Assembly (NCBI GenBank): GCA_019752815.1
Contig: JAIELQ010000005.1
Location: 49,625-113,624, forward strand
Direction of reading: 5' to 3'
Length of the DNA stretch: 64,000 nucleotides
Source: Patescibacteria group bacterium
GTDB taxonomy: Bacteria; Patescibacteriota; Minisyncoccia; Phycocordibacterales; UBA918
A model generated the notes under the pieces. The model had not been told where the DNA came from. It worked only from the letters and a program-made list of their open reading frames with translations, and made no database searches. The translations under genes and the position numbers were made by a program. Each line of letters begins with the position of its first letter. Position 1 is the first letter of the stretch. Positions 3,586-50,349 of this stretch are shown here, one piece after another.

Positions 3586-4494
3586 GTGGCACTCAAACAA
3601 ATTAAAAACAAAATAATCTCCACCAAGAAAACCGGTAAAGTTACCAAGGCGATGGAAGCAGTGTCGGCGGTAAAAATGCGCAAGTCACAAGCACGGGCTT
3701 TTGATAGTCGTCCGTACGTGCATGCAGCGATGCGGATTTTGTCACGTCTGTCACAATCGGGAGATATAACTACACACTCACTTGCGCAAAAGCGCGATGC
3801 TGGAAAGAAACTGGTAGTGATGGTAACGAGTGATAAAGGGCTCGCCGGAAGTGTGAACAGTGCCATCATTAAAACTGTTGAGACAATGCTCCGTAACGGA
3901 GAAGAGTTTGATGTGATGACCATTGGTCGTAAAGCCACTGAGTTTGCGGGACGAGCTAACCTCACTGTTTTAGGTCAATTCACGAACGTGAGTGATGATG
4001 TAACGGTCGCTGATGTCTACAATATGGCCGAGGTAGTGCTTGATGCCTACAAAAAAGCCGAAACATATTCCAAGGTTGAAGTAGTGTACCAAAACTTCAT
4101 TTCTACTTTTGAACAGGAACCAACGAAGCGTCAGATTCTCCCACTTGATCCAGCTGAAATTCACTACATCATGCAGGGTATCAAACCAAAAGTTGGGAAG
4201 TTCAGTGAGTCTGTGGTTGCGGCTGATACGGTCATCAATTACGAAATTGAGCCAAATGCAGCAGCAGTGCTTGATGTTCTGATTCCACAATTGGTGCAAA
4301 TCATGCTCTTCCACGCTCTACTTGAGAGTAAGGCGAGTGAACACAGTGCCCGTATGGTAGCGATGAAGAACGCCACTGATAAGAGTAAGGAAGTAACTAA
4401 GTCTCTCACCCTTAAATACAACAAAGCCCGTCAGGCAGCGATTACTGCTGAGGTAGCTGAGATAACCGGTGGTATGGAAGCAATGAAAAAATAA
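3586..4494 (+). CDS. atpG: ATP synthase F1 gamma subunit
   Basis: GTG start. N-terminal IKNKIISTKKTGKVTKAMEAVSAVKMRK and C-terminal ITAEVAEITGGMEAMKK are typical of gamma. Confidence 0.9.
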   Translation: MALKQIKNKIISTKKTGKVTKAMEAVSAVKMRKSQARAFDSRPYVHAAMRILSRLSQSGDITTHSLAQKRDAGKKLVVMVTSDKGLAGSVNSAIIKTVETMLRNGEEFDVMTIGRKATEFAGRANLTVLGQFTNVSDDVTVADVYNMAEVVLDAYKKAETYSKVEVVYQNFISTFEQEPTKRQILPLDPAEIHYIMQGIKPKVGKFSESVVAADTVINYEIEPNAAAVLDVLIPQLVQIMLFHALLESKASEHSARMVAMKNATDKSKEVTKSLTLKYNKARQAAITAEVAEITGGMEAMKK

Positions 4495-14360: not shown

Positions 14361-14383
14361 GCTCCCCAGGCAGGATTCGAAGC
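14361..14383 (+). repeat. Degenerate copy A of the tRNA-Asn 3' end (att-like)
   Basis: GCTCCCCAGGCAGGATTCGAAGC versus the tRNA 3' end GCTCCCCGGGCAGGATTCGAACC at 20410..20432. A roughly 60-nt imperfect palindrome follows (CTTTCGC...GCGAAAG). Confidence 0.65.
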
Positions 14384-14545
14384 TTACTTTCGCAAGTGAG
14401 TAAGGAATACAAAATTTACTTGGTTTTGAGTTACTAACTCAGCGAAAGAATATTTGCATACAGCTTCAGCACAGGTTGTCGCTCGCTTGTTTCTAAATCA
14501 ACAATATCACTGGATAAAATTAAGAAACTGCTTTCTGAGCTTACG

Positions 14546-15715: not shown

Positions 15716-15738
15716 GCTCCCCGGGCAGGATTTGAAGC
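15716..15738 (+). repeat. Degenerate copy B of the tRNA-Asn 3' end (att-like)
   Basis: GCTCCCCGGGCAGGATTTGAAGC. Copies A and B share the GAAGCTT variant. Confidence 0.65.
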
Positions 15739-15767
15739 TTTTAGGTCCGTGTGTTTCTAAGTGGTGA

Positions 15768-18164
15768 TTACAATGCCCACTTCGGTCGACGGTAGTAGGT
15801 AAAGGCAAGTAACACACTAATAAATATCAAGGGTATAAGTAATCGCTGGCGAAAAGTATTGGTTACTGGGGTGTCTTGTGTGCCATCGTCAGCTTGGGCG
15901 ATATTGGTGCCGAGTATAGTTGGTAGACTATCAATAATAGTTTCAGTGGTGGTAGCTACTCCCAGCACAGTCGGGAGTGTGTCGTCAGTCAGAAAGCTAG
16001 CATTTGATTGCATCAAGAGTGGGTAGGTGAGGGCCGTGGGTAGATTAGTTGCACGGTAGAGAATTGTACCGTGGGCCAAATTCTGTCTCGACGCTACGTT
16101 ATTTTGCAGTAGGGTAGTATCGAGGGTGTAGGTGCCTGGATTAGCACCCCCCATAAAGGTAATCTCGTATAAAACGGTTATTTCCTCATAGGGCAGGAGA
16201 GTGCCAATGTCCCAGACCTCGGTTTGAATTATATTCCCAAGCTCGTCTCGTAAATTATCGGTGAGGCTTATGTTCATAAAGGTCTTGCTCGTTGGATTAT
16301 TGATGATGATGTGCTGCGGGGAGACTTCTCCTTGGTGTGTAATACTGCTGGTCGATAGACGATTAATTGTGATATTACTCAGATTAGTCATAGCGGGTGT
16401 ATCGGATAGATTTTTTAACACCGTATTTTTCTTGCTGGTATTAGAACCGCCACTACTAACTTTTTTACTGGCGTAAATTGTTCCGGTATCAGAATTGTCT
16501 TGTGTATTATTATCGTTTTCGTGTGAGGTTACATTAACGGTGTTAGTAATTTCTGTACCAGGGACCGTGTTACGAACTTTTGCTTGATATGATATTTGGC
16601 TTGATTCGCCTACTGCGAGTGGCTCGGGTAAGTTGAAGGAAATCGTTCCGTCACTTAGGGTTGTGTAGGTATGTGAGGAATCAATGATCGAGAGGTGTGC
16701 GGTATCAAAATCGTCACGAACGATGACGTTGTTGGCGATGGCGTCACCTTGATTGATGATGGTGTAGGTATAGGTAACTACGCTATCGTTTTTTATGGTT
16801 GCAGGAGTAGAAATCTCCTCACCAATCCAAAGGTCAGGTCGGCCAAAGGCGAGGTTGCCGGTAAAGTCGCCAAAGATATTAATTATAGCGAGTGTCCAAT
16901 TTCTTCCGATGACGGTGGCGTTAGCAACAGTGACCACATTGGCGCCAATCAATGCGTCACCGGTGGTAATCAGGGACGAATCTGCTCCGGTAATGGTATT
17001 TTGTCCACTGTTGGCAGTGAGGGTTGCATTGGTAGTGATAGCGGCGGTGTTGGTGGCGCTGACTGTACGTTGTGCCGCAGCAGTACTGCCCTGATTTGAG
17101 TTGGTGAGGTAGTATGAACCATCATCTCCTTTGATTACTTCTATCTCGGGAATTAATCCTTGAATTTCACCCAGCCAATCACCATGAACTTTGAGCATAA
17201 TAACCATTGAGTCACCACCAAGGAGGGCGCTGTTAATAGAATTAATAGTTTGAGTGACACTTTTGGCATTGCCGGTTAGGGTGGTAGTAACGTTACCGTC
17301 TACGGTGTTATTGCCAGTATTAGAATTAGACTCAATGTTGCTTGTTACTAAAGCTTGATTTTGAATATCGATATTGGTCGGAACGGTTGAGACCGCTGAG
17401 GTAAAAAAGTTATTTAGTCCAGGAAAAATAATATCACCCGTAACATCACGAAAGGCATTTACTGTGACTACCAAATAGTGTGAATCAATAAAGGTACTGT
17501 TAGCGATTGTGACGAGATTCAGGCCCGTAAATGCGTCGCCCGTTTCAATCAGAGCATTACCTAGATTTGTTTCCAGTTCGTTGTTCCCGGTAATCGATTC
17601 AAGGAAAATTGTATTATCGATTGTAGCGCCGTTTATTACGCCAACACTGACTGCGTCAGAAGATAAGCAGGTATGTAAATCGCAGGGGACGCTTGTGCTA
17701 CTTTGTGGACGGAAATCAAGCGCGTTAGTTTGGTTGTTGTGTAGCTGAGCAAAAATAATTTCACCTTGGGAATTAACAGAAGTGGTATTCACGACATTTA
17801 AAATATTAGCGGCAGCGAGCGCATCACCAGTAACGATACTGGTGGTAGTCGCTATGATTGCTGTTTCCGTGGTGGTTGCCTGTGCATCGCTTGTAGTAGC
17901 GGGGGTAGATTCGAGATCGCTCGTGGTAGCCACGCTTTCGCTACGCTCTTCGCTTGTCGTAGAAATCGGTTTTGTTACCTGAGGAGGGGTGTTAGTTACT
18001 ATATCCACAATGACGCTTGTTTCTGCTGGGTTTGTTTCTGTTTGTGACTGACCGGCTTCTGTATCTTCATCCGCATATACGGAGGTTGAAAATAGGGGAG
18101 TGCTGAGGAGAAGCATCAGGGCAGCAAATATTCCAGCGGCAAATTTTTTGATGTATGTTTTCAT
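15768..18164 (-). CDS. Large surface/adhesin-like protein (798 aa) with signal peptide and C-terminal TM anchor
   Basis: N-terminal signal peptide MKTYIKKFAAGIFAALMLLLSTPLFSTSVYA. Thr/Asn/Ser-rich beta-repeat body. C-terminal LLIPLIFISVLLAFTYYRRPKWAL is a hydrophobic anchor with a basic tail. Confidence 0.7.
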   Translation of the reverse strand: MKTYIKKFAAGIFAALMLLLSTPLFSTSVYADEDTEAGQSQTETNPAETSVIVDIVTNTPPQVTKPISTTSEERSESVATTSDLESTPATTSDAQATTTETAIIATTTSIVTGDALAAANILNVVNTTSVNSQGEIIFAQLHNNQTNALDFRPQSSTSVPCDLHTCLSSDAVSVGVINGATIDNTIFLESITGNNELETNLGNALIETGDAFTGLNLVTIANSTFIDSHYLVVTVNAFRDVTGDIIFPGLNNFFTSAVSTVPTNIDIQNQALVTSNIESNSNTGNNTVDGNVTTTLTGNAKSVTQTINSINSALLGGDSMVIMLKVHGDWLGEIQGLIPEIEVIKGDDGSYYLTNSNQGSTAAAQRTVSATNTAAITTNATLTANSGQNTITGADSSLITTGDALIGANVVTVANATVIGRNWTLAIINIFGDFTGNLAFGRPDLWIGEEISTPATIKNDSVVTYTYTIINQGDAIANNVIVRDDFDTAHLSIIDSSHTYTTLSDGTISFNLPEPLAVGESSQISYQAKVRNTVPGTEITNTVNVTSHENDNNTQDNSDTGTIYASKKVSSGGSNTSKKNTVLKNLSDTPAMTNLSNITINRLSTSSITHQGEVSPQHIIINNPTSKTFMNISLTDNLRDELGNIIQTEVWDIGTLLPYEEITVLYEITFMGGANPGTYTLDTTLLQNNVASRQNLAHGTILYRATNLPTALTYPLLMQSNASFLTDDTLPTVLGVATTTETIIDSLPTILGTNIAQADDGTQDTPVTNTFRQRLLIPLIFISVLLAFTYYRRPKWAL

Positions 18165-18263: not shown

Positions 18264-19364
18264 TTAGTTACGGACGATTCGGGTCATGGTACGACCTGAG
18301 GTAGTCACAATAGTAGCCAGCGAGTCAGAGACACCGGTATTAACCGCGCCGCCATTTCCACCGTTACCACCAGTACCGCCGGTGCCAGCAGTTGAATCAT
18401 TTGATTCAGATCCACTACCACTTGTGTTACCTCCGTCACCACCACGCTCTGCCCGTGCACCACGAGAGGTATTGTCTCCGGTTTGGGCATTCACCGCGAC
18501 GGCGTTACCGACATTAGCTGTATTGGTGTTTGCTGCAGCAATGTCATCTTCGTCATCAACATGAGTGCGAGTGTATTCAATTGATAGGTTGTCGTATTCG
18601 ACAAGACTAATGTCTGAAGTAAGTGTTACATCATCAGAAATGGCGTTATTTGACGATGAATTTGATTCAGATGAATTGTCGTACTCACTCGCTGATTCTG
18701 ATTCAGTGTTGTTTGACTCTGATTCAGAGTTTGATGAACTAGATTCTGAATTAGAGCTTGAACTTTCGTCAGTGTCATCTGATGAATCACTATCAGATGA
18801 AGAGTCAGACGCTTCATTTTCAGAAGCTGATTCTGAGTTAGCTTCCTCACTTTCAGATTCACTTCCTGTTACAGAAGTACTTTCTGATTCTTGTTGTGAA
18901 GAGTTTTCATCGTAGTCTTGAACATATGATGTAGATTCATCATAGGTCATGCCAGTTTCAGATTGGTATGACAATGTTTCATCATAATTTTCGTCGTTTC
19001 CGTTATTGTCTTCGATAACGGTATCGGTAGTGTTAACATCATTGCGAATGTCAGCAGTGGCGATAGCATCACCGGTCGTGATGCTGCCACCATTTCCGCC
19101 ATTTCCACCATCGCCACCGTCGCCGGCAGTACTACTGCCGTCATTAGAACCGCTGACGTTACCACCTTCACCACCACGATTCGCCCGAGCGCCTCGAGAA
19201 GTGTTTCCACCAGTGTTGGCTCCAACTGTTACTTGGTTAGTAACCGTTGCTTCGTTGTCGTTAGTAACGGTTATTGCTCCAGCCAAAGCTGTTTGTCCAC
19301 CGACAGCCACCATACTTAATATGGCGAGTGTCGCAGTAGATTTTGCTAAAATGTTTGTTCTCAT
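18264..19364 (-). CDS. Secreted polyanionic low-complexity protein with an internal duplicated Gly/Asn domain
   Basis: Signal peptide. Two similar Gly/Asn-rich segments (..GGNTSRGARA.RGG.GGN.SGS..STAG.GG.GGNGGNGG..) flank an extremely Ser/Asp/Glu-rich stretch (SESESEEANSESASENEASDSSSDSDSSDDTDESSSSNSESSSS...). Confidence 0.6.
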   Translation of the reverse strand: MRTNILAKSTATLAILSMVAVGGQTALAGAITVTNDNEATVTNQVTVGANTGGNTSRGARANRGGEGGNVSGSNDGSSTAGDGGDGGNGGNGGSITTGDAIATADIRNDVNTTDTVIEDNNGNDENYDETLSYQSETGMTYDESTSYVQDYDENSSQQESESTSVTGSESESEEANSESASENEASDSSSDSDSSDDTDESSSSNSESSSSNSESESNNTESESASEYDNSSESNSSSNNAISDDVTLTSDISLVEYDNLSIEYTRTHVDDEDDIAAANTNTANVGNAVAVNAQTGDNTSRGARAERGGDGGNTSGSGSESNDSTAGTGGTGGNGGNGGAVNTGVSDSLATIVTTSGRTMTRIVRN

Positions 19365-19574
19365 AATGTGTAAGATTATTTATTAATTTGTCGAAGCAAA
19401 ATTGTTTGATATAAAAAAATAACAAATTACCTCCAGACAAAACTAATACCGCGGTGGTCAAATGTAGATTACAAACTGAGTTCAAAAGTTGCTCACTAGG
19501 CAACAGAAAAATAGATACGTCATTAATTTAAAAAAAATTACCACCCGAGTTTCATCGGGTGGTTTTGATAATAA

Positions 19575-20165
19575 TTACTCTGATTCTGTGATGTCTTGCA
19601 CAGATGGTGTTTTGAGTTTTATCTTTTGTTTAATTTCGTCACCTTTGGCAAACTGTATGTAAATTGTTTCGCTGGCGGCTCGTTTGCTTATGCCTTCAAT
19701 TGCGGTCGCTTCGTCGGGACTCGCCTCCATTGCTTCAACATTCAGTTCCCATTTTCGGCGCAGAAATTTCAACTTCCGTAACGTAATTAAACGCTCAATA
19801 AGGGTGACCACTTCTTTAGCACTACGTGGCACACTGATGCCTGCAGGCGTATTTCTCCAACCTAACGTGCCAGTTGCCCAGGTAACGGAACGTTGTTTGC
19901 CGTTGTCGGTGAGCGTTGTTTTATGAGTGCGTGCGTACTCTTTTAGAATGGTGAATTTTTCAGCAAACTCGTCTGACACTTTTGCTGCCTTTTGGTCAGC
20001 TACCACCACCAATACATTGATGGCTTGATTCAGTTCAACCTGCTGCTGCTCAAGTTTGAGCTTCAGTTTCTCTAGTTCTCCCAACAACTGGGCAGCTTCA
20101 GCATCGTTTGTCGGTATAGGGAAGGTATGTTTTTTGGCCACGATAGGCTCCTTTGAAATGAACAT
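19575..20165 (-). CDS. Phage Mu Gam-like host-nuclease inhibitor family protein
   Basis: N-terminal coiled coil (LLGELEKLKLKLEQQQVELNQAINVL) then the Gam-like core KTTLTDNGKQRSVTWATGTLGWRNTPAGISV..AKEVVTLIERL. Confidence 0.6.
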   Translation of the reverse strand: MFISKEPIVAKKHTFPIPTNDAEAAQLLGELEKLKLKLEQQQVELNQAINVLVVVADQKAAKVSDEFAEKFTILKEYARTHKTTLTDNGKQRSVTWATGTLGWRNTPAGISVPRSAKEVVTLIERLITLRKLKFLRRKWELNVEAMEASPDEATAIEGISKRAASETIYIQFAKGDEIKQKIKLKTPSVQDITESE

Positions 20166-20296
20166 TTCTTATATAAGGCCGATTGTGTTTTGAGATGATT
20201 GCAGGTTGTTTTCTTCTTGGGTAGGATTCGATTCCTACAGAATCTATGCAGCGTTTGGATATTTTGTGCGCAAGCTACAAAATATCTCAAAACGCT

Positions 20297-20398
20297 TTTC
20301 GAATCCTGACGCAAGGCACGTGTAGTGCCTTGCTCCCGGGGAGCGTGTGATCATAGGTACAGTAAAAGCCACAAGCTGATGCTTGTGGCTTTTACTGT
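20297..20398. repeat. Palindromic structure next to the tRNA-Asn 3' end
   Basis: Perfect 18-bp inverted repeat ACAGTAAAAGCCACAAGC-TGAT-GCTTGTGGCTTTTACTGT at 20361..20398. At 20297..20346 there is an inverted copy of the tRNA 3' motif (CGCTCCCCGGGAG...CAGGATTCGAA on the minus strand), split by the hairpin GCAAGGCAC-TACAC-GTGCCTTGC. Confidence 0.6.
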
Positions 20399-20410
20399 AT
20401 GATTACTACG

Positions 20411-20743
20411 CTCCCCGGGCAGGATTCGAACCTGCGACCAATCGATTACACGAATCTCCTAATTTCTTAGAGGGGTGGACTATATCATCACCGGTTGTAT
20501 TTCTACACGACGGTGCAAGGCGCTTCGAATGCATTTTTGCATCCTACTCCCGTAAGGGATAGTCTCTGAACCTTCAATTGGATTTCTCCAAAAGCTTGGC
20601 TGCTGATTGCCCACAGCACACGAATGTCTGTTTCGGGGTTCCAGCAATTCACCTTGTTTGCAATAACGATTTCTCGATAAGGCTGCTATTTTGAACTTTG
20701 TCCACTGTTACAGTCGACTGCTCTACCGCTGAGCTACCGAGGA
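20411..20743 (-). tRNA. tRNA-Asn(GUU) interrupted by a group I intron. Exon 1 is 20710..20743, the intron is 20449..20709, exon 2 is 20411..20448.
   Basis: Exons on the minus strand read UCCUCGG-UA-GCUC-AGCGGUA-GAGC-A-GUCGA-CUGU / UAA-UCGAU-UGGUC-GCAGG-UUCGAAU-CCUGC-CCGGGGA-G. The acceptor stem, D arm and discriminator G73 match bacterial tRNA-Asn (compare E. coli UCCUCUGUAGUUCAGUCGGUAGAAC...). The intervening 261 nt ends in G and carries the group I R element GUUCAGAGACUA, the S element AUAUAGUCC, and P/Q-like elements AAUUGCUGGAA and AAUCAGCAGCC. Confidence 0.8.
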
Positions 20744-28225: not shown

Positions 28226-29725
28226 TTAAAACTCATCGAGATATTTAATGTCTGCACCGAGACTGGCTAATCGTGCAACGAGGTTTTCATAACCGCGGTT
28301 GATACTGTAGATATTACGCAGGACCGAGCGGCCGGATGCGCCCAACATCGCAATCAAGAGAATCGTAGCGGGACGCAAGGCGGGCGGGCAGATGAGCTCA
28401 GCTGATTTTAGCTGTGTTGGTCCGGTGATGTAGATACGGTGAGGGTCGGCCAAAACGGTGTCAGCACCGAGTTTTTCGAGCTCGGTAAAATAAATGGCGC
28501 GTTTTTCATACATCCAATCGTGAATGAGGGTTTGACCAGCTGCCTGGGTCGCAATCACCGCGTAGAAGGGGAGGTTGTCGGCATTGAGTCCAGGGTAGGG
28601 CCTGGAGTGTACTTTTTCTGGTGAAGCGTGTAGTTTGCTTGGTTTGATTTTTAAATCTACCAGTTTGGTGTATTCATTGACTGCTAGGTATGGTTTTGAT
28701 GTGCTGTATTGCAGACCCATTTTTTCGAGTACCAACAGTTCAAGCTCAAGAAACTCAATTGGAGCTCGGGTAATAGTGATGGCAGAATTAGTAACAATTG
28801 CAGCTGCAATAAAAAACATACTGTCGGTTGGATCCTCGGCCAGGGTGTATTCAATATCGACATTGATAGTACGAACACCGGTAACGGTTAGTGTGGTGGT
28901 GCCGATACCTTCAATTTGCACCCCAAATAATTTTAAGAAGACACAGATTTCCTGCACCATGTAGTTGGCACTCGCATATTTGATGACCGTTGTGCCTTCG
29001 TTAAGTGCTGCTGCGAACAGGACATTTTCAGTCACGGTGTCCCCGGATTCGTAAAGAATAATTTCAGACGGTTTTTTAAGTACGGTTGCGACTCTGAATT
29101 CTTTTTCTGTGGTTTCTATACTGACACCATAGTGTTCAAGGGCGTAAAAATGAGGGCGAACGGTGCGACTGCCGAGTTTGCAACCGCCTGATTGCGGAAG
29201 TGCAAAACTCGGCATAGTGTGAATCAGTGCACCAATAAACATTACAATACTGCGGGTTTTGCGGGCAGCATCAACATCGATTTTTTTGAGATCAAATTTT
29301 TTGGGTGGGGTGATCGTAATGGTACTGCCGCTCCAAACAATATGCATGCCGATACTCTGTAGCACCTCGATAATGCGGTGCACTTCCTCGATACGAGGCA
29401 TTCTGTGGAGGGTGGTGACGCCGCGGTTTAATAGTGACGCACATAGAAGTCCCACTGCACCATTTTTACTGGTATTAGTTTCAATGGTGCCAGATAGCTT
29501 CTTGTTCCCATTGATTTCGACATTAACGGTCCCAGGTGAGAGGGTGATGAGATTTTTACCGAGTGCGGTCCCGATTTTTTTCAGCATCTCGGCACTGATG
29601 TTTTGGGTGCCTGATTCAAGACGAGCAATAGCGCTTTGTGTAGTTTTAAGTTTTTTAGCGAGTTGTGTTTGGGTGAGTCCGACTGACTCTCTCAAATCAG
29701 CAATTCTGTTTCCAATATTTTCCAT
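28226..29725 (-). CDS. murA: UDP-N-acetylglucosamine 1-carboxyvinyltransferase fused to an N-terminal XRE-type HTH domain
   Basis: Residues 1-60, IADLRESVGLTQTQLAKKLKTTQSAIARLESGTQNISAEMLKKIGTALG, form an HTH_XRE. The remaining roughly 430 aa has the MurA/EPSP fold (SKNGAVGLLCASLL and related motifs). 499 aa in total. Confidence 0.85.
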   Translation of the reverse strand: MENIGNRIADLRESVGLTQTQLAKKLKTTQSAIARLESGTQNISAEMLKKIGTALGKNLITLSPGTVNVEINGNKKLSGTIETNTSKNGAVGLLCASLLNRGVTTLHRMPRIEEVHRIIEVLQSIGMHIVWSGSTITITPPKKFDLKKIDVDAARKTRSIVMFIGALIHTMPSFALPQSGGCKLGSRTVRPHFYALEHYGVSIETTEKEFRVATVLKKPSEIILYESGDTVTENVLFAAALNEGTTVIKYASANYMVQEICVFLKLFGVQIEGIGTTTLTVTGVRTINVDIEYTLAEDPTDSMFFIAAAIVTNSAITITRAPIEFLELELLVLEKMGLQYSTSKPYLAVNEYTKLVDLKIKPSKLHASPEKVHSRPYPGLNADNLPFYAVIATQAAGQTLIHDWMYEKRAIYFTELEKLGADTVLADPHRIYITGPTQLKSAELICPPALRPATILLIAMLGASGRSVLRNIYSINRGYENLVARLASLGADIKYLDEF

Positions 29726-33156: not shown

Positions 33157-34740
33157 ATGTCGGAATTGGCAGCTACACTTCATCAATTTGCAACCGTTGA
33201 TAGTAATCAGTTTGTGATCAATGAGCGTAAGGGTAGTGTATTGCGCGCAGTCGAAAAAAGTTTTTCATTCAGAGAGTTTAATCCAAAAACGAGCGTCCCG
33301 CTGTCACTTACAGAATTATCAACCATTATGCACTTTACCGGCAATGGTATTACATCCTCGCCACAATATAAGCAGTCTGGAGCGATGACTGCAGCAGCGC
33401 CTACTGATACACCTACAGAAGGTACACTTTTGGGAGTCAATAAACACCGTAACACCGAAAAGGAGATTTATATGACTGAGCGTGATCGCATGCGACATTT
33501 TTACGTGATTGGTCAAACGGGTACTGGTAAATCAGTATTGCTTAAAAATGTCATCATTCAAGATATTTTAAATGGTGACGGTGTTTGTATGATAGACCCG
33601 CATGGAACCGACATCGTAGACGTACTAGGCTCAATTCCACCAGAGCGTGAAAAGGATGTAATTTACTTTGATCCATCGGATCTAGAGAATCCAATTGGGC
33701 TTAACATGCTGGAGTTTGATGAACAAAAACCAGAGCAGAAAACATTTGTGGTTAATGAATTATTTTCAATTTTCCAAAAATTGTATGGAGGAAATCCAGA
33801 ATCAATGGGGCCAATGTTTGAACAGTATTTTCGTAACGCAACGTTGCTCGTGATGGAAGATCCAGATTCAGGGAATACCCTAATGGATATTTCACGGGTA
33901 ATGGCTGACGCCAAGTATCGGCGGATGAAATTAGAGAAAGCTAAAAATCCGGTCGTGGTACAGTTTTGGCGTGAGATTGCGACTAAAGCCGGTGGTGAAG
34001 CTTCACTCGAAAACATAGTGCCCTATATCGTATCAAAATTCGACGTGTTTACCGCCAACGACTACATGCGTCCAATTATTGGTCAGCAAAAATCGGCTTT
34101 CAACTTTAGACAGATTATGGATGAGAAGAAAATCTTACTTGTGAATCTTTCTAAAGGCCGTTTGGGTGAAATTAATGCCAATCTTATTGGTATGATTATT
34201 GTAGGTAAAATCTTGATGGCAGCATTGTCTCGAGTAGATAATGAAGCGATGGACTTTCCACCGTTCTATTTGCATATTGATGAGTTCCAAAACGTATCAA
34301 CTCCATCAATTGCTTCAATTTTGTCAGAAGCTCGAAAGTATAAATTGAGTCTCACTATGGCTCATCAATTTATTGCGCAACTTGATCAAGATATTAAAGA
34401 TGCGGTATTTGGTAACGTGGGCTCAGTCGCAGCATTTCGAATTGGATCTGAAGATGCTCATTTTTTGGAGAGTCAGTTTGCTCCTGTATTTAGTGCAAAC
34501 GACCTAATGAATGTGCCAAATTGGAACGCTATGATACGGATGTTAGCTAATGGTACTCCAACAAAACCATTTAGTATTGGTACCATGCCACCTTTTAAAG
34601 CGGATATTACCAGAGTGGCAGAACTAAAAGCTATGTCCGCGAAAAGGTACGGACGTCCACGCGCCGAAGTTGAGGCTGAAATCGCTGCCCGCTATGCCAA
34701 GGAGCCTGTTTCGCTCCCCCCGCTAAGTGCTATGATATAG
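33157..34740 (+). CDS. FtsK/HerA/TraG(VirD4)-superfamily P-loop ATPase (soluble, 527 aa)
   Basis: Walker A HFYVIGQTGTGKSVLLKN. Walker B FYLHIDEFQN. Downstream ARKYKLSLTMAHQFIAQLD resembles the RKYG..L.TQ motif of HerA/TraG/VirB4-type ATPases. No TM helices. Confidence 0.65.
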   Translation: MSELAATLHQFATVDSNQFVINERKGSVLRAVEKSFSFREFNPKTSVPLSLTELSTIMHFTGNGITSSPQYKQSGAMTAAAPTDTPTEGTLLGVNKHRNTEKEIYMTERDRMRHFYVIGQTGTGKSVLLKNVIIQDILNGDGVCMIDPHGTDIVDVLGSIPPEREKDVIYFDPSDLENPIGLNMLEFDEQKPEQKTFVVNELFSIFQKLYGGNPESMGPMFEQYFRNATLLVMEDPDSGNTLMDISRVMADAKYRRMKLEKAKNPVVVQFWREIATKAGGEASLENIVPYIVSKFDVFTANDYMRPIIGQQKSAFNFRQIMDEKKILLVNLSKGRLGEINANLIGMIIVGKILMAALSRVDNEAMDFPPFYLHIDEFQNVSTPSIASILSEARKYKLSLTMAHQFIAQLDQDIKDAVFGNVGSVAAFRIGSEDAHFLESQFAPVFSANDLMNVPNWNAMIRMLANGTPTKPFSIGTMPPFKADITRVAELKAMSAKRYGRPRAEVEAEIAARYAKEPVSLPPLSAMI

Positions 34741-34745
34741 GTACT

Positions 34746-37502
34746 ATGAAAGAGGGCTATCCATCAAATAAATTGGATGTGGCGTATCGAGGCGACTTCG
34801 AAGACCCTGCGCGGACTGCTTTTTCTAATGCACAGTTGCCGCCCCAAAGAGTGACACTCGAAGATTTTGCAAAATATCCGTTTGGTCCTTCTGAGATAAC
34901 TTCAAAAAGTGATTACGTAAAACATGTGCTCACCTGGTTTTCAAAAGCACTCATCGATGCTGGATATAAACCCAATGAAGTTGATAATCTCATTCGTAAA
35001 TCATTAGATACTATTGATTTTAATAGACCGGAAGCGATGTACGTAGCTGATATCAATCGTATTATTCAAAATTTTTATAAGGCAGCTCCTGGTAAAAATA
35101 GTTCGACTGAGGCAACTGAGGTTCCAGCTCCAGTTGCTGCTGGGCAAGCTGAGATTATTGAGACTTCTGTTCAGTCAACACCAACACCAATAACGCCTGT
35201 TGTACCGCAACAGAGTGAAACGCACATTTCTCCTTTTGCACAAAAAGTTGAACCGTTTCGGTCGGCAGATGATGGTGTGCCCAAAGAGGTCACAATTAAT
35301 ACTAGAACTCCAGATCTGAGTTCGGTTTCGAGTGTAGAAATACAACAAGAAGAAGAAACTCTGCCACTCGCTACAGAATTTGATGATCGAGCGCAAGAAT
35401 ATGCCGAATACGGTAATCGTTCAATAAAAATAACACCTTCTTTCCCTGAAGCTACTAACGTGACAGCGGTTAAAAAAGATAATTTCGAAAATCCTCCTCA
35501 GGTGACTCGTAATGAACAGTTAGCTTCGACACCGCTCATTCTAACCCCTGAAATGCGGGTTGTTGATCCGAATGAACCAATTGTGCTTGAGACAGTGAGT
35601 GCTGATGACGAGGTCGCGTTGGAGAAGCGGAATGTTGGTTTAGAATATCAAAGCAAGCTTGATGCGCTCAACACACAAGCGTTTAATCATGAAGCGTACA
35701 TAGAATTTGTGTTTGATGTGCACACGGGTCTTAGACATGAATATGATGGAGTAATCAATTCAGCGCGAAATAACCTAAAGCGATTTGATGGCTTTTATGC
35801 ACCGTCCACAATTGAAAAACAAGCACTGCAATTATTATCAAGTCTCCAAGGTCAGTACGCCAAGATGCAGAATGTACAATCTGATTACGGTCTTATTCGA
35901 GGCGCACTGACTGAGAAATTAAGTGAGAGTCCTACCGACGCAATCGAAGCCGAAATTAAGTCTTTGTCACAGAGTTATCTTGATGCTACACAAAAACTTT
36001 TTGCAAACATTAGCAAGCTTGAAGGTTTGATAGAAGAAGTGAAACAAGAAGAAAAACCGTCAGTAGCAGAAGTGTATCGGGCACAATTTGAAAAACTGCA
36101 GACTGAAGGTAATCAGGTGTTGCGGTCACTATCAGCCAGTCACCCCTTGTATGAGCGGCTAAAGACAGCTGTAGAAGTTGATTTACAAAAAATTATTGCA
36201 CAAGCGTCTGTTGAAAATGGGGGAGATAAAGCGGTACTTGAAAACTCCTCGAACTTTATAGCGAGAAGGGATCAAATTAAAGAGCTGATTTCATTTATCA
36301 AAAAAGAACAAGAGTATCAAGATTTCTTTGCGCGTGCTCGGGCGCGGGTGCAAAAACTTGAATCACAATTTGAAATAATTCCGACGGGAGATAAAGGAAT
36401 GCAGGTAAAAACAATCCTTGCAGAAAATATTGTAAAAATTAAACAGGCTCTTAGTGGAACTGATTCACAAACCGCCACCGTAGGCGTGCTTGAGAACTTG
36501 AATCAACAAAAAAGCATTATTGAGATGTTACTTCGTGATTCAGAAGAGTCAATTTCGTCATTACCGCAGAGTGAGACTGTCGTACAACAAGAAGTGGGGT
36601 CAAGGGTGTTAACTGATGCTGAGTTGATTGCCGTTGTTGAAAAAACTCCGCTTGTTGAAAATATGGCAGAAGTGCAGGATCGCTATCAGATGCAGCGGGC
36701 AGAGATTGAAAAATATCTAACGTACCAACGTGAGCAACAGAGCAGGGAACGTTTCTCTGGACCCGTGTATGAAAAAGCAAAACGACTAGCAGGCATGCTA
36801 CATTTGGGTACGATTGGTAAAGCGGCTGCGGTACTTTTGACGCTCGCTGGACCAGCTGGTGTCTCGAGTCAAAAATCAGACCTGAATATTCTTGGTGATC
36901 TCAACATGTCAGCAGGTGTGTTAGCGCAACCGGATTTTGATTACGCCGCTATTTCAGAATTTCTCCGGACGGCTGAGGGATTTAGGGTGATTTCTGAAAC
37001 AGTAGCACCGGCAGTGTCAACTGTTGCTCCAGAGTTACCAAAAGTACCAGTGTCAGTAGAGACTGTGCCCGGTGTGATTTTGCCAGACATGGTCAGTCGT
37101 TCAAATGACGAAACCCAGGATATGCCATCAGAAATCTTTAGTGATTTAGCTGATGAGGTACCAAAAGACAAGGGTATTGAATTTGCAAGTCCAAATAAAT
37201 CTAATGTTCCAGAAGCTTTACGTAAGCCATACAAAATAAATTTTGGTGATAAATTCTGGGATATTAATGAGGGAAAAACGCTCGCTGGTAAATTGCCGGT
37301 CATGTCACAAATAAATCCTTCCTTAAAACAAGCACTCATAGACCGTATGCGCGATAAAATTAATAATGACAGAGCACTCAGAGACGCTATTGGCGGGTTT
37401 GGTAAAAATGCTGATCAGCTCCGTACCGGAGAATTAATGAATCTCGACAAACTTAATGAACTGGGGGTGAGTGTAGCCGCTGACTACAGTTATCTAAAAT
37501 AA
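34746..37502 (+). CDS. Giant hypothetical coiled-coil protein (918 aa)
   Basis: Long predicted helical or coiled-coil regions with one internal hydrophobic segment (AAAVLLTLAGPAGV). No enzymatic motif recognised. Start is 6 nt after the ATPase stop. Confidence 0.55.
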   Translation: MKEGYPSNKLDVAYRGDFEDPARTAFSNAQLPPQRVTLEDFAKYPFGPSEITSKSDYVKHVLTWFSKALIDAGYKPNEVDNLIRKSLDTIDFNRPEAMYVADINRIIQNFYKAAPGKNSSTEATEVPAPVAAGQAEIIETSVQSTPTPITPVVPQQSETHISPFAQKVEPFRSADDGVPKEVTINTRTPDLSSVSSVEIQQEEETLPLATEFDDRAQEYAEYGNRSIKITPSFPEATNVTAVKKDNFENPPQVTRNEQLASTPLILTPEMRVVDPNEPIVLETVSADDEVALEKRNVGLEYQSKLDALNTQAFNHEAYIEFVFDVHTGLRHEYDGVINSARNNLKRFDGFYAPSTIEKQALQLLSSLQGQYAKMQNVQSDYGLIRGALTEKLSESPTDAIEAEIKSLSQSYLDATQKLFANISKLEGLIEEVKQEEKPSVAEVYRAQFEKLQTEGNQVLRSLSASHPLYERLKTAVEVDLQKIIAQASVENGGDKAVLENSSNFIARRDQIKELISFIKKEQEYQDFFARARARVQKLESQFEIIPTGDKGMQVKTILAENIVKIKQALSGTDSQTATVGVLENLNQQKSIIEMLLRDSEESISSLPQSETVVQQEVGSRVLTDAELIAVVEKTPLVENMAEVQDRYQMQRAEIEKYLTYQREQQSRERFSGPVYEKAKRLAGMLHLGTIGKAAAVLLTLAGPAGVSSQKSDLNILGDLNMSAGVLAQPDFDYAAISEFLRTAEGFRVISETVAPAVSTVAPELPKVPVSVETVPGVILPDMVSRSNDETQDMPSEIFSDLADEVPKDKGIEFASPNKSNVPEALRKPYKINFGDKFWDINEGKTLAGKLPVMSQINPSLKQALIDRMRDKINNDRALRDAIGGFGKNADQLRTGELMNLDKLNELGVSVAADYSYLK

Positions 37503-37867: not shown

Positions 37868-39631
37868 ATGCGTATGACAGCTGATGCTCGTTCTTTGGGG
37901 GTAACCGTACCTGAACAGTTTGACTTCGATTCTCAAGCGGGAATTTTGTTTGTGTTACGTGCTATTAGAGCAGCAGATTTAAGTGGTGCCGATAAAAACA
38001 GTCTTAAAGATTTAGTCTTTCTCTACAATACAGGTGGAAAAGATGAATCGGTAAAGAAAAAATTAGCTGATACTCTGAGTGTACATGGAGTTACTCCGGC
38101 TACAGTTTTACTCGAGGTGCCCAAGCAGGCTGCAGTTCCGAGAGAAGAAGCGAAACCATTAACTACTCCTGGTTTTATGGGTGGACGATTGACACCAGTA
38201 TTTCATCCACCAGTCGTAGCAACTCCTGCCGCCCCAATACCGGTTACAGCACCAGCACCTGTGTCAGTTGTACAAGTTCCTCAAGTTGATGTTCCGGTGA
38301 TACAAATTAAACCCGAAACCCAACCAAACGTTGTAGTACCTAAAGTAGAAAAAGTTACTCCTGTTGCACCAGTAGCTCCGCCAGTTCGACCAATAGTACC
38401 AGTGCCACAGCCGGTAACTCCAGTGCCAAACGTGACGCCTGAAGCAGTCAATATCGAGGTTAAAAAAGATATCCCAACACCTGTTCAGACTCCGGTTGAG
38501 GTGGCGCCTGCCTACGTCGCGAGTCGTATGGAGCGTATCCGAGTTATTAAATCTGATGTTAACGCTCGAGTAGGTAATCCGGTGAATCTTGTAGATGTCG
38601 ACAATGCGCTTGGTCGCGAATATATGAGCGCGCTGCTGGAAGCAATGAAGCTGCTCAGTAGTGCCAGTGAACAAGAGTCAACTATTGCGATGAACCGATT
38701 AGAGACAGTATACGCCCAGGTGCTGTTACTGCTTGATGCCCAGCAAAAAACCGAATCCGCTGTTGTGTCACCCGTTACGCCCCCGGCACCAGTGATGCCA
38801 GTTGTTCCAGTTACTCCCGTGCCACCAGTACTGCCGGTGGTGCCAGTTGTACCTGTAGCCCAGCCAGCAGCTCAAACACCAATGCCTGAGGTCGTAGCAC
38901 CGGTTTCAATTCCTGTGGTGTCGAGTCCGGTTGTGCCGTCTCCGGTGGTAGTACCACAGCCAGTTTTACCATCGATTGTCGAGCCCGCACTTGATGTGAT
39001 TGTTCGCAGTAAAGTATCTGATAAACCGACTACACCACCGGTAGTGAGCAATTGGGAAACGGCTGCTCATGCTCCAGTCGATATGGTTTCAAGTGTGGGG
39101 GCTACAGTCACACCGCCTGATGTAGTAATGGTAAACCGTATGAGTACTCCACCAGCGGAACCATTGCGTCCGGTAGTGTCACCAGTAGCACAGGTGTACC
39201 AGCCGGAAGTTACTCCGTCTGTAGGTGAAGTACAGCCACTGCGAGCCATCACCGAATTACCAACTGCTGACGAGGTGAGTGCGGTAGAAGCTATGAGTAG
39301 TAATCCTCTGTACACCAAAGATATTGATGCCGGTTTGGATCAATTGCTCAGTGAGTGGGCAATCTTCAAAAAAAGTGGTTTGTTTGGAACGGGACCGAAA
39401 GGGCGTGAACATCCGCTCTATATCAAAATATCACCGATGCAAGTTCCACTTATCCTCTCTGGTCGTTTTGAAGGTTCGACCCAGGAAATTAAACAAAGTA
39501 TTACTGATTACATGAATGGTTGGCGGTATGAACAGGGAATTGTGTACGAACCAAACGAAACGTTTGATCAGTATCTCAGACGCGTTATCAGGCATATCTT
39601 AGATTTGCAGAAAACAAAACGTCGTTCATAA
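37868..39631 (+). CDS. Pro/Val-rich repetitive protein with a conserved C-terminal globular domain (587 aa)
   Basis: Central PV-rich repeats (PVTPVPNVTPEAV, PVMPVVPVTPVPPVLPVVPVVPVAQP). C-terminal domain ..LYTKDIDAGLDQLLSEWAIFKKSGLFGTGPKGREHPLYIKI.. Confidence 0.55.
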   Translation: MRMTADARSLGVTVPEQFDFDSQAGILFVLRAIRAADLSGADKNSLKDLVFLYNTGGKDESVKKKLADTLSVHGVTPATVLLEVPKQAAVPREEAKPLTTPGFMGGRLTPVFHPPVVATPAAPIPVTAPAPVSVVQVPQVDVPVIQIKPETQPNVVVPKVEKVTPVAPVAPPVRPIVPVPQPVTPVPNVTPEAVNIEVKKDIPTPVQTPVEVAPAYVASRMERIRVIKSDVNARVGNPVNLVDVDNALGREYMSALLEAMKLLSSASEQESTIAMNRLETVYAQVLLLLDAQQKTESAVVSPVTPPAPVMPVVPVTPVPPVLPVVPVVPVAQPAAQTPMPEVVAPVSIPVVSSPVVPSPVVVPQPVLPSIVEPALDVIVRSKVSDKPTTPPVVSNWETAAHAPVDMVSSVGATVTPPDVVMVNRMSTPPAEPLRPVVSPVAQVYQPEVTPSVGEVQPLRAITELPTADEVSAVEAMSSNPLYTKDIDAGLDQLLSEWAIFKKSGLFGTGPKGREHPLYIKISPMQVPLILSGRFEGSTQEIKQSITDYMNGWRYEQGIVYEPNETFDQYLRRVIRHILDLQKTKRRS

Positions 39632-48264: not shown

Positions 48265-48525
48265 GGGAGGGAAATCCAAAATCCATCATCTGCGTTGTTG
48301 GTTGGCAAAAAATTTTGTTCAAGGTGAGAAAGTCTGGGAGACTTTCCCAAGAGGTTGCCAGCTAGTTTGAAAAACTAGCGACAACCTGAACAGCTTCTGT
48401 AAGAAGCAGAAAGCACACCTCACAATATTTTTCACCACCCGCCTAGCAGCTGAAAGAATTTTGAACTTCCATCGACCATTTAGGTGTTTACAAAACCGAC
48501 CGCTCACGCGGTCGGTTTTTGTTAT
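48265..48525 (+). ncRNA. Candidate structured non-coding RNA (unclassified) between greA and lysS
   Basis: About 260 nt without a credible ORF. Stable hairpins (GGTTGCCAGCTAGTTT-GAAA-AACTAGCGACAACC, and CTTC-TGTAA-GAAG). Ends in the terminator CCGACCGC-TCAC-GCGGTCGG followed by TTTTTGTT at 48496..48522. Confidence 0.35.
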
Positions 48526-48583
48526 TGCTTTTGATTTCTAATCATGATAGTTTTCTGTTAGTTCTCCAGCAAAAGGAAAGACT

Positions 48584-48846: not shown

Positions 48847-50349
48847 ATGTCTACACACGATGATTTAATGAACGAACGCCGAAAAAAGCGCGACGCCCTA
48901 CAGGCGGCCGGGATGAACCCGTATACCGCGACGGCCAAAGCCACTCATACTAATGGGGCAGTTTTACAGAATTTTAACGAGCTCGTGGCTTCGGCCGAAT
49001 CCGTAACTCTCACTGGCCGGGTGATGGCATTGCGTCTCCATGGGGCCTTAGCGTTTGCTGACATTTTTGATGGTACTGCTCGAGTGCAAGCTATGTTCAC
49101 GAAGGAAAATGTCGGGGAGGAGCTGTTTGATTTATTTGTCGCTACTATTGATGCCGGGGACTTCATTGAAGTTACCGGGACAGCATTTATTACCAAGCGC
49201 GAAACCCAAGCTATCCAAGTTGCGACCTGGCGAGTTTTAACCAAGTCACTGGCACCAATGCCAACTGAACACTTTGGTATCAAAGATGAAGACATGCGCT
49301 ACCGCAAGCGATACCTCGACTTACTACTCGACGATGAAGCGCGTGCGCTGTTTATACAAAAAGCCAAGTTCTGGGAAGTCACGCGACGATTTATGGTTGA
49401 TCATGGTTTTCTCGAGGTAGAAACACCAACCATTGAAGTTACAACCGGTGGTGCTGAAGCTCGTCCATTTAAAACGTATCACAACGATTTTGATATGCCG
49501 GTGTTTATGCGTATCTGTATCGGAGAACTGTGGCAGAAGCGTTTGATGGCGGCTGGTTACCCAAAAACATTTGAAATTGGTCGCGCCTATCGCAATGAAG
49601 GAACGAGTCCGGAACACCTCCAAGAATTCACTAACTGCGAGTTCTATTGGGCGTATGCTGACTATCGTGACGGGATGACGTTTGTGCGTGATTTGTATCG
49701 GGCGATTGCCACCGAGGTGTTTGGTACCACCAAATTCACTATGCGTGATCATACGTTTGATTTGGCTGATGACTGGGTGGAGATTGATTATACGGAAACC
49801 ATCAGAGAAAAAACTGGCATTGATATTCATACAGCCACCGAAGCCGAGATGGAAACTAAATTGCGCGAACTGGGTGTTAAGTACGACGGTAACAATCGGG
49901 AACGATTAACAGATACACTTTGGAAATATTGTCGTAAACAAATTACTGGTCCAGCGTTCTTGATTAACCATCCAACACTAGTAGCACCGCTGGCGAAAAA
50001 GCGACCAGGTACAGATACAGTTGAAATGTTCCAGCCAATTATCGCTGGTAGTGAAGTAGGTCGTGGCTATAGTGAACTAAACGACCCCGATGATCAGCGC
50101 GCCCGATTCGAAGTACAAAAGAAACTGCTTGATGCGGGTGATGACGAGGCTATGATGGCCGATTGGGAATTTGTGGAGATGCTCGAACACGGCATGCCAC
50201 CAACCTGCGGGTTTGGATTTGGCGAACGTTTGTTTGCGTTCTTGGCAGGGAAGCCACTACGTGAAGTACAGCTATTTCCACTGATGAAACCAAAAAATGA
50301 GGCTGATAAAGATTCTGCACAGTCAGATTGTGTAGCGTGTGAAGGGTAG
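48847..50349 (+). CDS. lysS: Lysyl-tRNA synthetase, class II
   Basis: N-terminal OB domain. Class II motifs FLEVETPTIEV, FEIGRAYRNEG and the C-terminal GFGFGERL. Confidence 0.95.
   Translation: MSTHDDLMNERRKKRDALQAAGMNPYTATAKATHTNGAVLQNFNELVASAESVTLTGRVMALRLHGALAFADIFDGTARVQAMFTKENVGEELFDLFVATIDAGDFIEVTGTAFITKRETQAIQVATWRVLTKSLAPMPTEHFGIKDEDMRYRKRYLDLLLDDEARALFIQKAKFWEVTRRFMVDHGFLEVETPTIEVTTGGAEARPFKTYHNDFDMPVFMRICIGELWQKRLMAAGYPKTFEIGRAYRNEGTSPEHLQEFTNCEFYWAYADYRDGMTFVRDLYRAIATEVFGTTKFTMRDHTFDLADDWVEIDYTETIREKTGIDIHTATEAEMETKLRELGVKYDGNNRERLTDTLWKYCRKQITGPAFLINHPTLVAPLAKKRPGTDTVEMFQPIIAGSEVGRGYSELNDPDDQRARFEVQKKLLDAGDDEAMMADWEFVEMLEHGMPPTCGFGFGERLFAFLAGKPLREVQLFPLMKPKNEADKDSAQSDCVACEG

Follow-up and report, generated by a model that had tools for sequence, protein, structure and literature searches.

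The Gam protein of phage Mu prevents loading of RecBCD (PMC12407980) and is described as able to mediate NHEJ of host DNA (PMC8987985, citing Bhattacharyya 2018). Common ancestry of Gam and bacterial Ku, both of which are DNA-end-binding homodimers, has been proposed, and Gam orthologues noted in bacteria have been assumed to come from prophage insertions (PMC1378119). The Gam protein of phage lambda is unrelated to Mu Gam in both family and mechanism (PMC12407980). A search of the literature yielded no publication on Gam in Patescibacteria, a phylum in which the repertoire for DNA repair is strongly reduced and little known.

A Gam gene was analyzed in a 64-kb stretch of the chromosome of a Patescibacteria bacterium (hereafter the window, to which all coordinates refer unless a related locus, designated by an L number, is named). 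The assignment of the protein is itself routine, as an identical protein is already present in NCBI and annotated as a Gam family member. Any surprise lies in the context of the gene and in its evolutionary persistence: what is new is the evidence for a persistent, selected, prophage-free clade of Gam at a defined locus.

The Gam gene, its product and its signals

The following features were assigned to the gene and its immediate flanks.

19575..20141, minus strand: coding sequence of the Gam-family protein, 188 aa from GTG (open reading frame, PF07352, orthologue alignment, start-codon register)
20148..20153, minus strand: Shine-Dalgarno sequence AAGGAG, 6 nt upstream of the GTG (alignment of upstream regions, 9 loci)
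19540..19563, minus strand: intrinsic terminator-like hairpin with T-run, 9 bp of which 6 are G-C (terminator scan)

A sequence-only reading of this DNA had reported a 196-aa open reading frame at 19575-20165. This frame was confirmed on the minus strand from an ATG, including the quoted peptide GKQRSVTWATGTLGWRNTPAGISV, but the real start is most likely the GTG at 20141, yielding a product of 188 rather than 196 aa, since the MAK.. start of the orthologues aligns there and AAGGAG lies 6 nt upstream. In the orthologue alignment, GTG (20141-20139) is the window codon that corresponds to the orthologues' start; all 24 orthologues have the MAK.. N-terminus, one of them in a 220-aa, N-terminally extended form, and the 8 extra residues that follow from the ATG at 20165 are present in none. 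Furthermore, AGGAG precedes the start by 5-6 nt in all orthologous loci examined (9 aligned, one of which has GGAG), and length is held to 183-191 aa in 23 of the 25 full-length clade proteins. The predicted 188-aa product has a mass of 21.1 kDa and a pI of 9.2.

The terminator-like hairpin begins 11 nt past the Gam stop codon, and an equivalent hairpin was found downstream of every orthologue (downstream sequences of 9 loci). Each orthologue thus has a private terminator, and the Gam gene would therefore be monocistronic; it is predicted to be transcribed as a unit by itself, from a presumed promoter to its own terminator. The GC content here (0.441) does not deviate from that of the window (0.440).

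Family membership, as called in the sequence-only reading, was borne out by an HMM search in which PF07352 (Phage_Mu_Gam) gave a significant match with an E-value of 4.8e-17 and 62.7 bits against a gathering cut-off of 28.3, covering profile positions 2-147 of 149. PHROG 491 ('Mu Gam-like end protection') was matched at 5e-21, and the structure PDB 2P2U was matched both by the single sequence (phmmer, 4.7e-8) and by the family profile (5e-28). Authentic Mu Gam (AF083977.1, 5801-6325, 174 aa) aligned with the window protein by BLASTP at 26% identity over 154 columns with an E-value of 1e-12. Of 50,697 phage records searched by tblastn, 21 gave a match; those listed were Mu-like transposable phages or Mu-like inserts, at 27-33% identity. 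The near-invariant positions of the family are kept (L85, G99, W103, R104, P107, F134, R136, A145, G158 and E166). Structure prediction with AlphaFold2 (pLDDT 89.8) gave an alpha/beta domain preceded by a single long helix at the N-terminus (residues 21-80). As judged from these alignments, the window gene is a genuine, divergent full-length member of family PF07352.

The C-terminal tail EIKQKIKLKTPS is invariant in the clade and has a looser form ('LK.P') in a subset of distant Gams. The stretch E-I-K-Q-K-I-K-L-K-T-P-S followed by acidic residues, at approximately residues 169-188 of 188 (19575-19640, minus strand), is near-invariant in the clade and predicted to be disordered (pLDDT about 57). 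This tail may serve as a motif that contacts DNA or binds a partner.

A flexible region downstream of tRNA-Asn

Between the tRNA gene upstream of Gam and the genes downstream, the following features were assigned.

20410..20743, minus strand: tRNA-Asn(GUU) with a group I intron (Rfam RF00028, 81.6 bits; exon alignment)
20449-20709, minus strand: group I intron of 261 nt, between anticodon positions 35 and 36
20206..20347, minus strand: structured module of about 145 nt between tRNA-Asn and Gam (covariance-model match, 132.7 bits)
15716..15739, minus strand: repeat R1 of the tRNA-Asn 3' end, a solo direct repeat matching at 22/24 nt
14361..14384, minus strand: repeat R2 of the tRNA-Asn 3' end, a solo direct repeat matching at 22/24 nt

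The position beside an intron-containing tRNA that had been read from the sequence holds up on the RF00028 match and the exon alignment, while ARAGORN fails to call this tRNA-Asn. The arrangement of an intron-interrupted tRNA-Asn(GUU) has already been published for Patescibacteria (PMC13011429). In the window the tRNA lies 270 nt upstream of Gam. Among contexts with enough upstream DNA, 6 of 8 (the window, L003, L005, L010, L011 and L014) have tRNA-Asn 0.27-5.7 kb upstream of Gam on the same strand; it is intronless in L003, L005, L010 and L011 and intron-containing in L014 (intron at 3807-4064).

The module is a branched imperfect palindrome in which the 3' arm is a copy of the final 24 nt of tRNA-Asn and the 5' arm its complement; in the window the 3' arm (20213-20236) is degenerate and the 5' arm spans 20298-20344. 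Other copies were located in L005 (4326-4470, 7010-7153 and 8451-8592), L003 (8086-8230), L010 (8112-8258) and L016-L034. The arms track the local tRNA variant and co-vary with the tRNA in L010. A covariance model recovered 43 copies in the DNA examined, with 93.9% of cells paired, compensatory changes in 45 of 46 pairs across the 43 copies, and a covariation score of 0.50 (shuffles, 0.13; slid controls, at most 0.08). No Rfam family was matched, and with counts of 50 for G-U and 28 for A-C the module may be read from either strand. In L005, IS genes, an APH gene and small open reading frames are set apart from one another by three modules; L021 contains tandem empty module units, and elsewhere the module also occurs singly after the tRNA. 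No recombinase was seen with the module. The module may be a recombination site of the attC type or a novel structured RNA, and this tRNA-Asn-linked object may be more unusual than the Gam gene. A pattern scan identified 19 module-bearing metagenome loci with no Gam homologue in the DNA available, and because of these loci Gam and the module do not constitute a unit.

At 48314-48430 on the plus strand of the window lies a degenerate relative, scoring 35 bits, of the module; the three inner hairpins are kept and the tRNA-like arms are missing. This intergenic element, possibly a small structured RNA, precedes the gene for a class II aminoacyl-tRNA synthetase of the Asp/Asn/Lys type (48847-50349), and a terminator-like hairpin comes after it at about 48497-48530.

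Copies of the tRNA 3' end also occur apart from the module. R1 and R2 lie 4.7 kb and 6.0 kb downstream of tRNA-Asn, and the 24-nt repeat recurs several times in L005 and L014. R1 and the degenerate arm at 20213-20236 bracket a segment comprising Gam, a 366-aa gene and a 798-aa DUF11 gene, while R1 and R2 delimit a segment encoding proteins of 141 aa and 133 aa. The junction formed by R1, TTTATATTGACAT and the 141-aa gene is the same as that after the L003 module, and the 141-aa gene has 81% identity to the one directly after that module. The solo repeats look like scars of serial site-specific insertions. The 'island' of the sequence-only reading thus stands as a flexible region downstream of tRNA-Asn in which insertion beside a tRNA 3' end is accompanied by direct repeats (R1, R2 and the degenerate copy at 20213-20236), but not as an island with an integrase or recombinase and deviant GC content.

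The two genes directly downstream of Gam (18264-19364, 366 aa, rich in G/N/S/D/E; 15768-18164, 798 aa, with a DUF11 domain; both minus strand) encode large secreted proteins of low complexity, both repeat-rich, with no homologue in any related locus fetched.

On the evidence of gene order, most clade copies occupy one chromosomal locus, namely this flexible region downstream of tRNA-Asn, between a def-fmt-HPF-Grx block and Fpg/ATP-synthase or def2 blocks. The upstream block, (MreB-MurA-631 aa)-def-fmt-HPF-Grx, is common to the window, L003, L005, L011 and L014. Downstream, the Fpg/ATP-synthase block is common to the window and L001, OmdA/AI-2E to L001 and L014, and def2 with the genes following it to L003, L005 and L008. 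Neighbors of Gam include accessory or cassette-like genes such as APH, IS elements, AhpC, glyoxalase and restriction-modification. In L001 (1-9800, GCA_046289095.1), a type I restriction-modification system, a ParB-N6/N4 methyltransferase fusion and a DUF4238 protein precede Gam and replace the tRNA-Asn block, with downstream Fpg/ATP-synthase synteny retained. The closest relative of the window, L022 (flank proteins 80-98% identical), contains neither Gam nor a remnant of it, and AhpC is followed directly by the gene found beyond Gam-def2 in L003 and L008. Gam is likewise missing over 6.7-9.7 kb in L019, L029 and L032, which share the upstream synteny. The gene is thus accessory and its distribution in the lineage patchy, with some members having it and others not.

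The absence of phage genes within 10 kb that had been noted from the sequence was borne out over a wider range. Pfam scans of 50 long open reading frames spanning 1.2-63 kb of the window revealed only cellular genes, with 13 frames lacking a Pfam match, and no transposase, integrase, recombinase, capsid, terminase or Mu gene among them. The matched frames include ATP synthase, Fpg, a sigma factor, fasciclin-domain proteins, MarR, glutaredoxin, HPF, fmt, def, an HTH-MurA fusion, two MreB paralogues, ClpP, RRF, aminoacyl-tRNA synthetase genes, PBPs, MraW, a Mur ligase, RNase H and the dcw cluster. A survey of the neighborhood in relatives gave the same picture: in ten other Gam contexts no Mu-type or phage structural genes were present, Gam never adjoined Mu genes, and no site-specific integrase was found. 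As a positive control, the outgroup Gam P0031 (L012) was recovered with MuB and GemA on either side, in a Mu-like prophage that is complete and also contains MuA, Mor and the Mu portal. Membership of the window Gam in a Mu-like prophage was accordingly rejected, with no MuA, MuB, GemA/Mor, portal or terminase among the 50 frames scanned in the window or in the 10 loci. Furthermore, no ligase, nuclease or Ku/LigD partner gene adjoins Gam, no ligase was found among its neighbors in the window or related loci, no LigD-type ligase was detected among the frames scanned in the window, and no PADLOC defence model matched Gam or its neighbors.

Two further observations concern other genes of the window. 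The MurA gene (28226-29725, minus strand; EPSP_synthase fold) is fused to an N-terminal XRE-type helix-turn-helix domain, and this fusion is conserved in several related genomes (L011 1492-3030, the start of L003, and L029 11863-13371). On the plus strand, a VirD4/TraG-like coupling ATPase (33157-34740; DUF87 / T4SS-DNA_transf / TraG-D_C) is followed by genes for 918-aa (34746-37502) and 587-aa (37868-39631) proteins without Pfam match, and the three may represent DNA-transfer or DNA-uptake machinery.

Spread, selection and origin of the clade

A word-indexed search of 5.8 billion clusters yielded 25 proteins of 59-73% identity, all with PF07352 and, where a source name was given, all from Patescibacteria or Paceibacteria. 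When 1.84 billion representatives were searched exhaustively with a profile, 806 family members were recovered, of which just two full-length 50%-identity clusters fall in the clade (317 and 209 bits; next match 94 bits), which places the clade as tight and isolated in the sequence space sampled. The clade was present in 1 of 185,579 GTDB species representatives and was not found among the 2.9 million viral contigs of IMG/VR.

The Gam frame is intact in 10 further genomic contexts. Among clade genes, pN was 0.12-0.26 compared to pS of 0.64-0.88 (Nei-Gojobori), such that synonymous sites are saturated, and dN/dS was 0.05-0.13 for those pairs where it could be computed. By these values, purifying selection has kept Gam long enough for synonymous saturation, and the gene is not a decaying relic. 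Identity of Gam between context genomes (59-78%) falls in or above the range seen for core genes of the flanks; between the window and L011, for example, Gam is 70% identical while HPF, Grx, Fmt and Def are 45%, 38%, 52% and 72% identical, respectively.

Two origins had been offered in the sequence-only reading, a relic of a Mu-like element and a domesticated end-protection factor, and the latter fits much better because the gene is intact in 10 contexts, diverges much as its flanks do, has saturated synonymous sites and keeps the same locus without Mu genes. A relic would be the decaying remainder of a Mu-like transposable prophage of which all else was lost, and both the family, which is typical of Mu-like phages, and the prophage origin assumed for bacterial orthologues (PMC1378119) speak for it. 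Set against these are open reading frames of constant length under strong purifying selection, a conserved ribosome-binding site and terminator, and a search of the window that found no Mu ends, MuA, MuB or structural-gene remnants. Mu transposes quasi-randomly, and for this reason a locus shared by diverged genomes is unexpected for Mu insertions. A relic is very unlikely. The gene is probably an exapted accessory gene of phage origin that serves the cell, with a product that would shield double-stranded DNA ends. By analogy with described Gam proteins, a homodimer held by the long N-terminal helices would bind double-stranded DNA ends and block exonucleases of the RecBCD/AddAB type, whereby the ends of a broken chromosome, or linear DNA that enters the cell or has been excised, would be stabilized; ends held by Gam may then be rejoined by the NAD-dependent ligase, as reported for Mu Gam with the E. 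coli ligase. Homology at 26-33% identity is the basis on which end binding, dimerization and protection from nucleases are predicted for the window protein.

The location of the Gam segment between att-like repeats and among cassette-like genes is equally compatible with a small islet or cassette, lacking an integrase, that inserted site-specifically at the tRNA-Asn 3' end and carries Gam as cargo. Gam would then protect linear or excised mobile DNA and persist by hitch-hiking and horizontal spread in the lineage. The tRNA upstream on the same strand in most contexts, the bracketing of the window segment by degenerate and 22/24 copies of the tRNA 3' end, the arrays of repeats and modules in L005, the variable presence of Gam among close relatives, and the restriction-modification and ParB-methylase genes adjoining it in L001 all favor such cargo. 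However, no tyrosine or serine recombinase and no other mobility gene accompanies Gam in any of 11 contexts, Gam lies beyond the last detectable repeat rather than between two in L005, L014, L003 and L008, and the 19 module-bearing metagenome loci are without Gam in the DNA available. Base composition at genome background, divergence that roughly tracks the flanking genes (L003 and L005 are closest in both) and the lack of a copy among viral contigs likewise count against cargo, which is possible but unlikely. Exaptation and cargo are not mutually exclusive, as the gene may have arrived by tRNA integration and been retained later. A narrower role for an exapted Gam, somewhat more doubtful, is that of a domesticated stand-in for Ku that would cap chromosomal double-strand breaks and, with the housekeeping NAD-dependent ligase, perform minimal end joining; ultra-small Patescibacteria presumably lack Ku/LigD, and the phage protein would be their sole NHEJ factor. 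Service as a host defence or regulatory factor is very unlikely. Such a factor could cap the ends of injected linear phage DNA, the circularization or replication of which would be blocked, or license another nuclease. Its circumstantial support comes from the variable region, the adjoining type I restriction-modification genes in L001 and the modulation of defence outcomes by end-binding proteins (PMC12407980), but no PADLOC model was matched, no partner gene is conserved and the contexts are mostly housekeeping. Assistance by Gam in recombination of cassette-like units at the tRNA-Asn hotspot is even more speculative, and is weakened because the 19 module-bearing loci lack Gam.

If exaptation is the right reading, the locus provides a comparative-genomic case of a phage anti-nuclease gene that a cellular lineage has retained and put to its own use. 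The locus also raises the testable question of whether end joining takes place in Patescibacteria. Furthermore, a small (21 kDa), divergent Gam/Ku-like end binder is a candidate reagent for end protection or for labelling of double-strand breaks.

Comparison with known end-binding systems

Phage Mu Gam and the window Gam belong to the same Pfam family, are of similar size, probably have the same architecture of a long N-terminal helix and an alpha/beta domain, and share the core motifs LT..GK, TG..WR..P and F.R.K.E.N.EA. Unlike Mu Gam, the window Gam is encoded outside a transposable phage (no MuA, MuB, GemA or Mor) by a monocistronic gene with its own terminator, is more basic (pI 9.2 compared to 7.8), and carries the C-terminal tail EIKQKIKLKTPS.. 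with low pLDDT, which Mu Gam lacks. The only solved structure of the family is PDB 2P2U, a putative Gam of Desulfovibrio vulgaris. The Gams of Mu-like prophages (for example L012, Haemophilus SuMu and Rhizobium RR1-B) are of the same family and provide the best phage matches at 27-33% identity. These genes lie in the early operon of complete prophages, between MuB and GemA/Mor, whereas those of the Patescibacteria clade do not, and a gap in score separates the two groups (317 and 209 compared to at most 94 bits). Phage lambda Gam, a DNA mimic that inhibits RecBCD, has in common with Mu Gam the name and the outcome of protection from RecBCD. Classification of the window Gam as a member of bacterial Ku/NHEJ (PF02735 with LigD) was rejected, with no Ku homology detected and no adjacent ligase: the Pfam scan returned only PF07352, the family profile returned no Ku from PDB, and hhalign against an approximate Mt-Ku sequence gave a probability of 0.4%. 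Bacterial Ku (Mt-Ku and YkoV, in Ku-LigD NHEJ) nevertheless provides the functional analogy for a Gam that serves its host.
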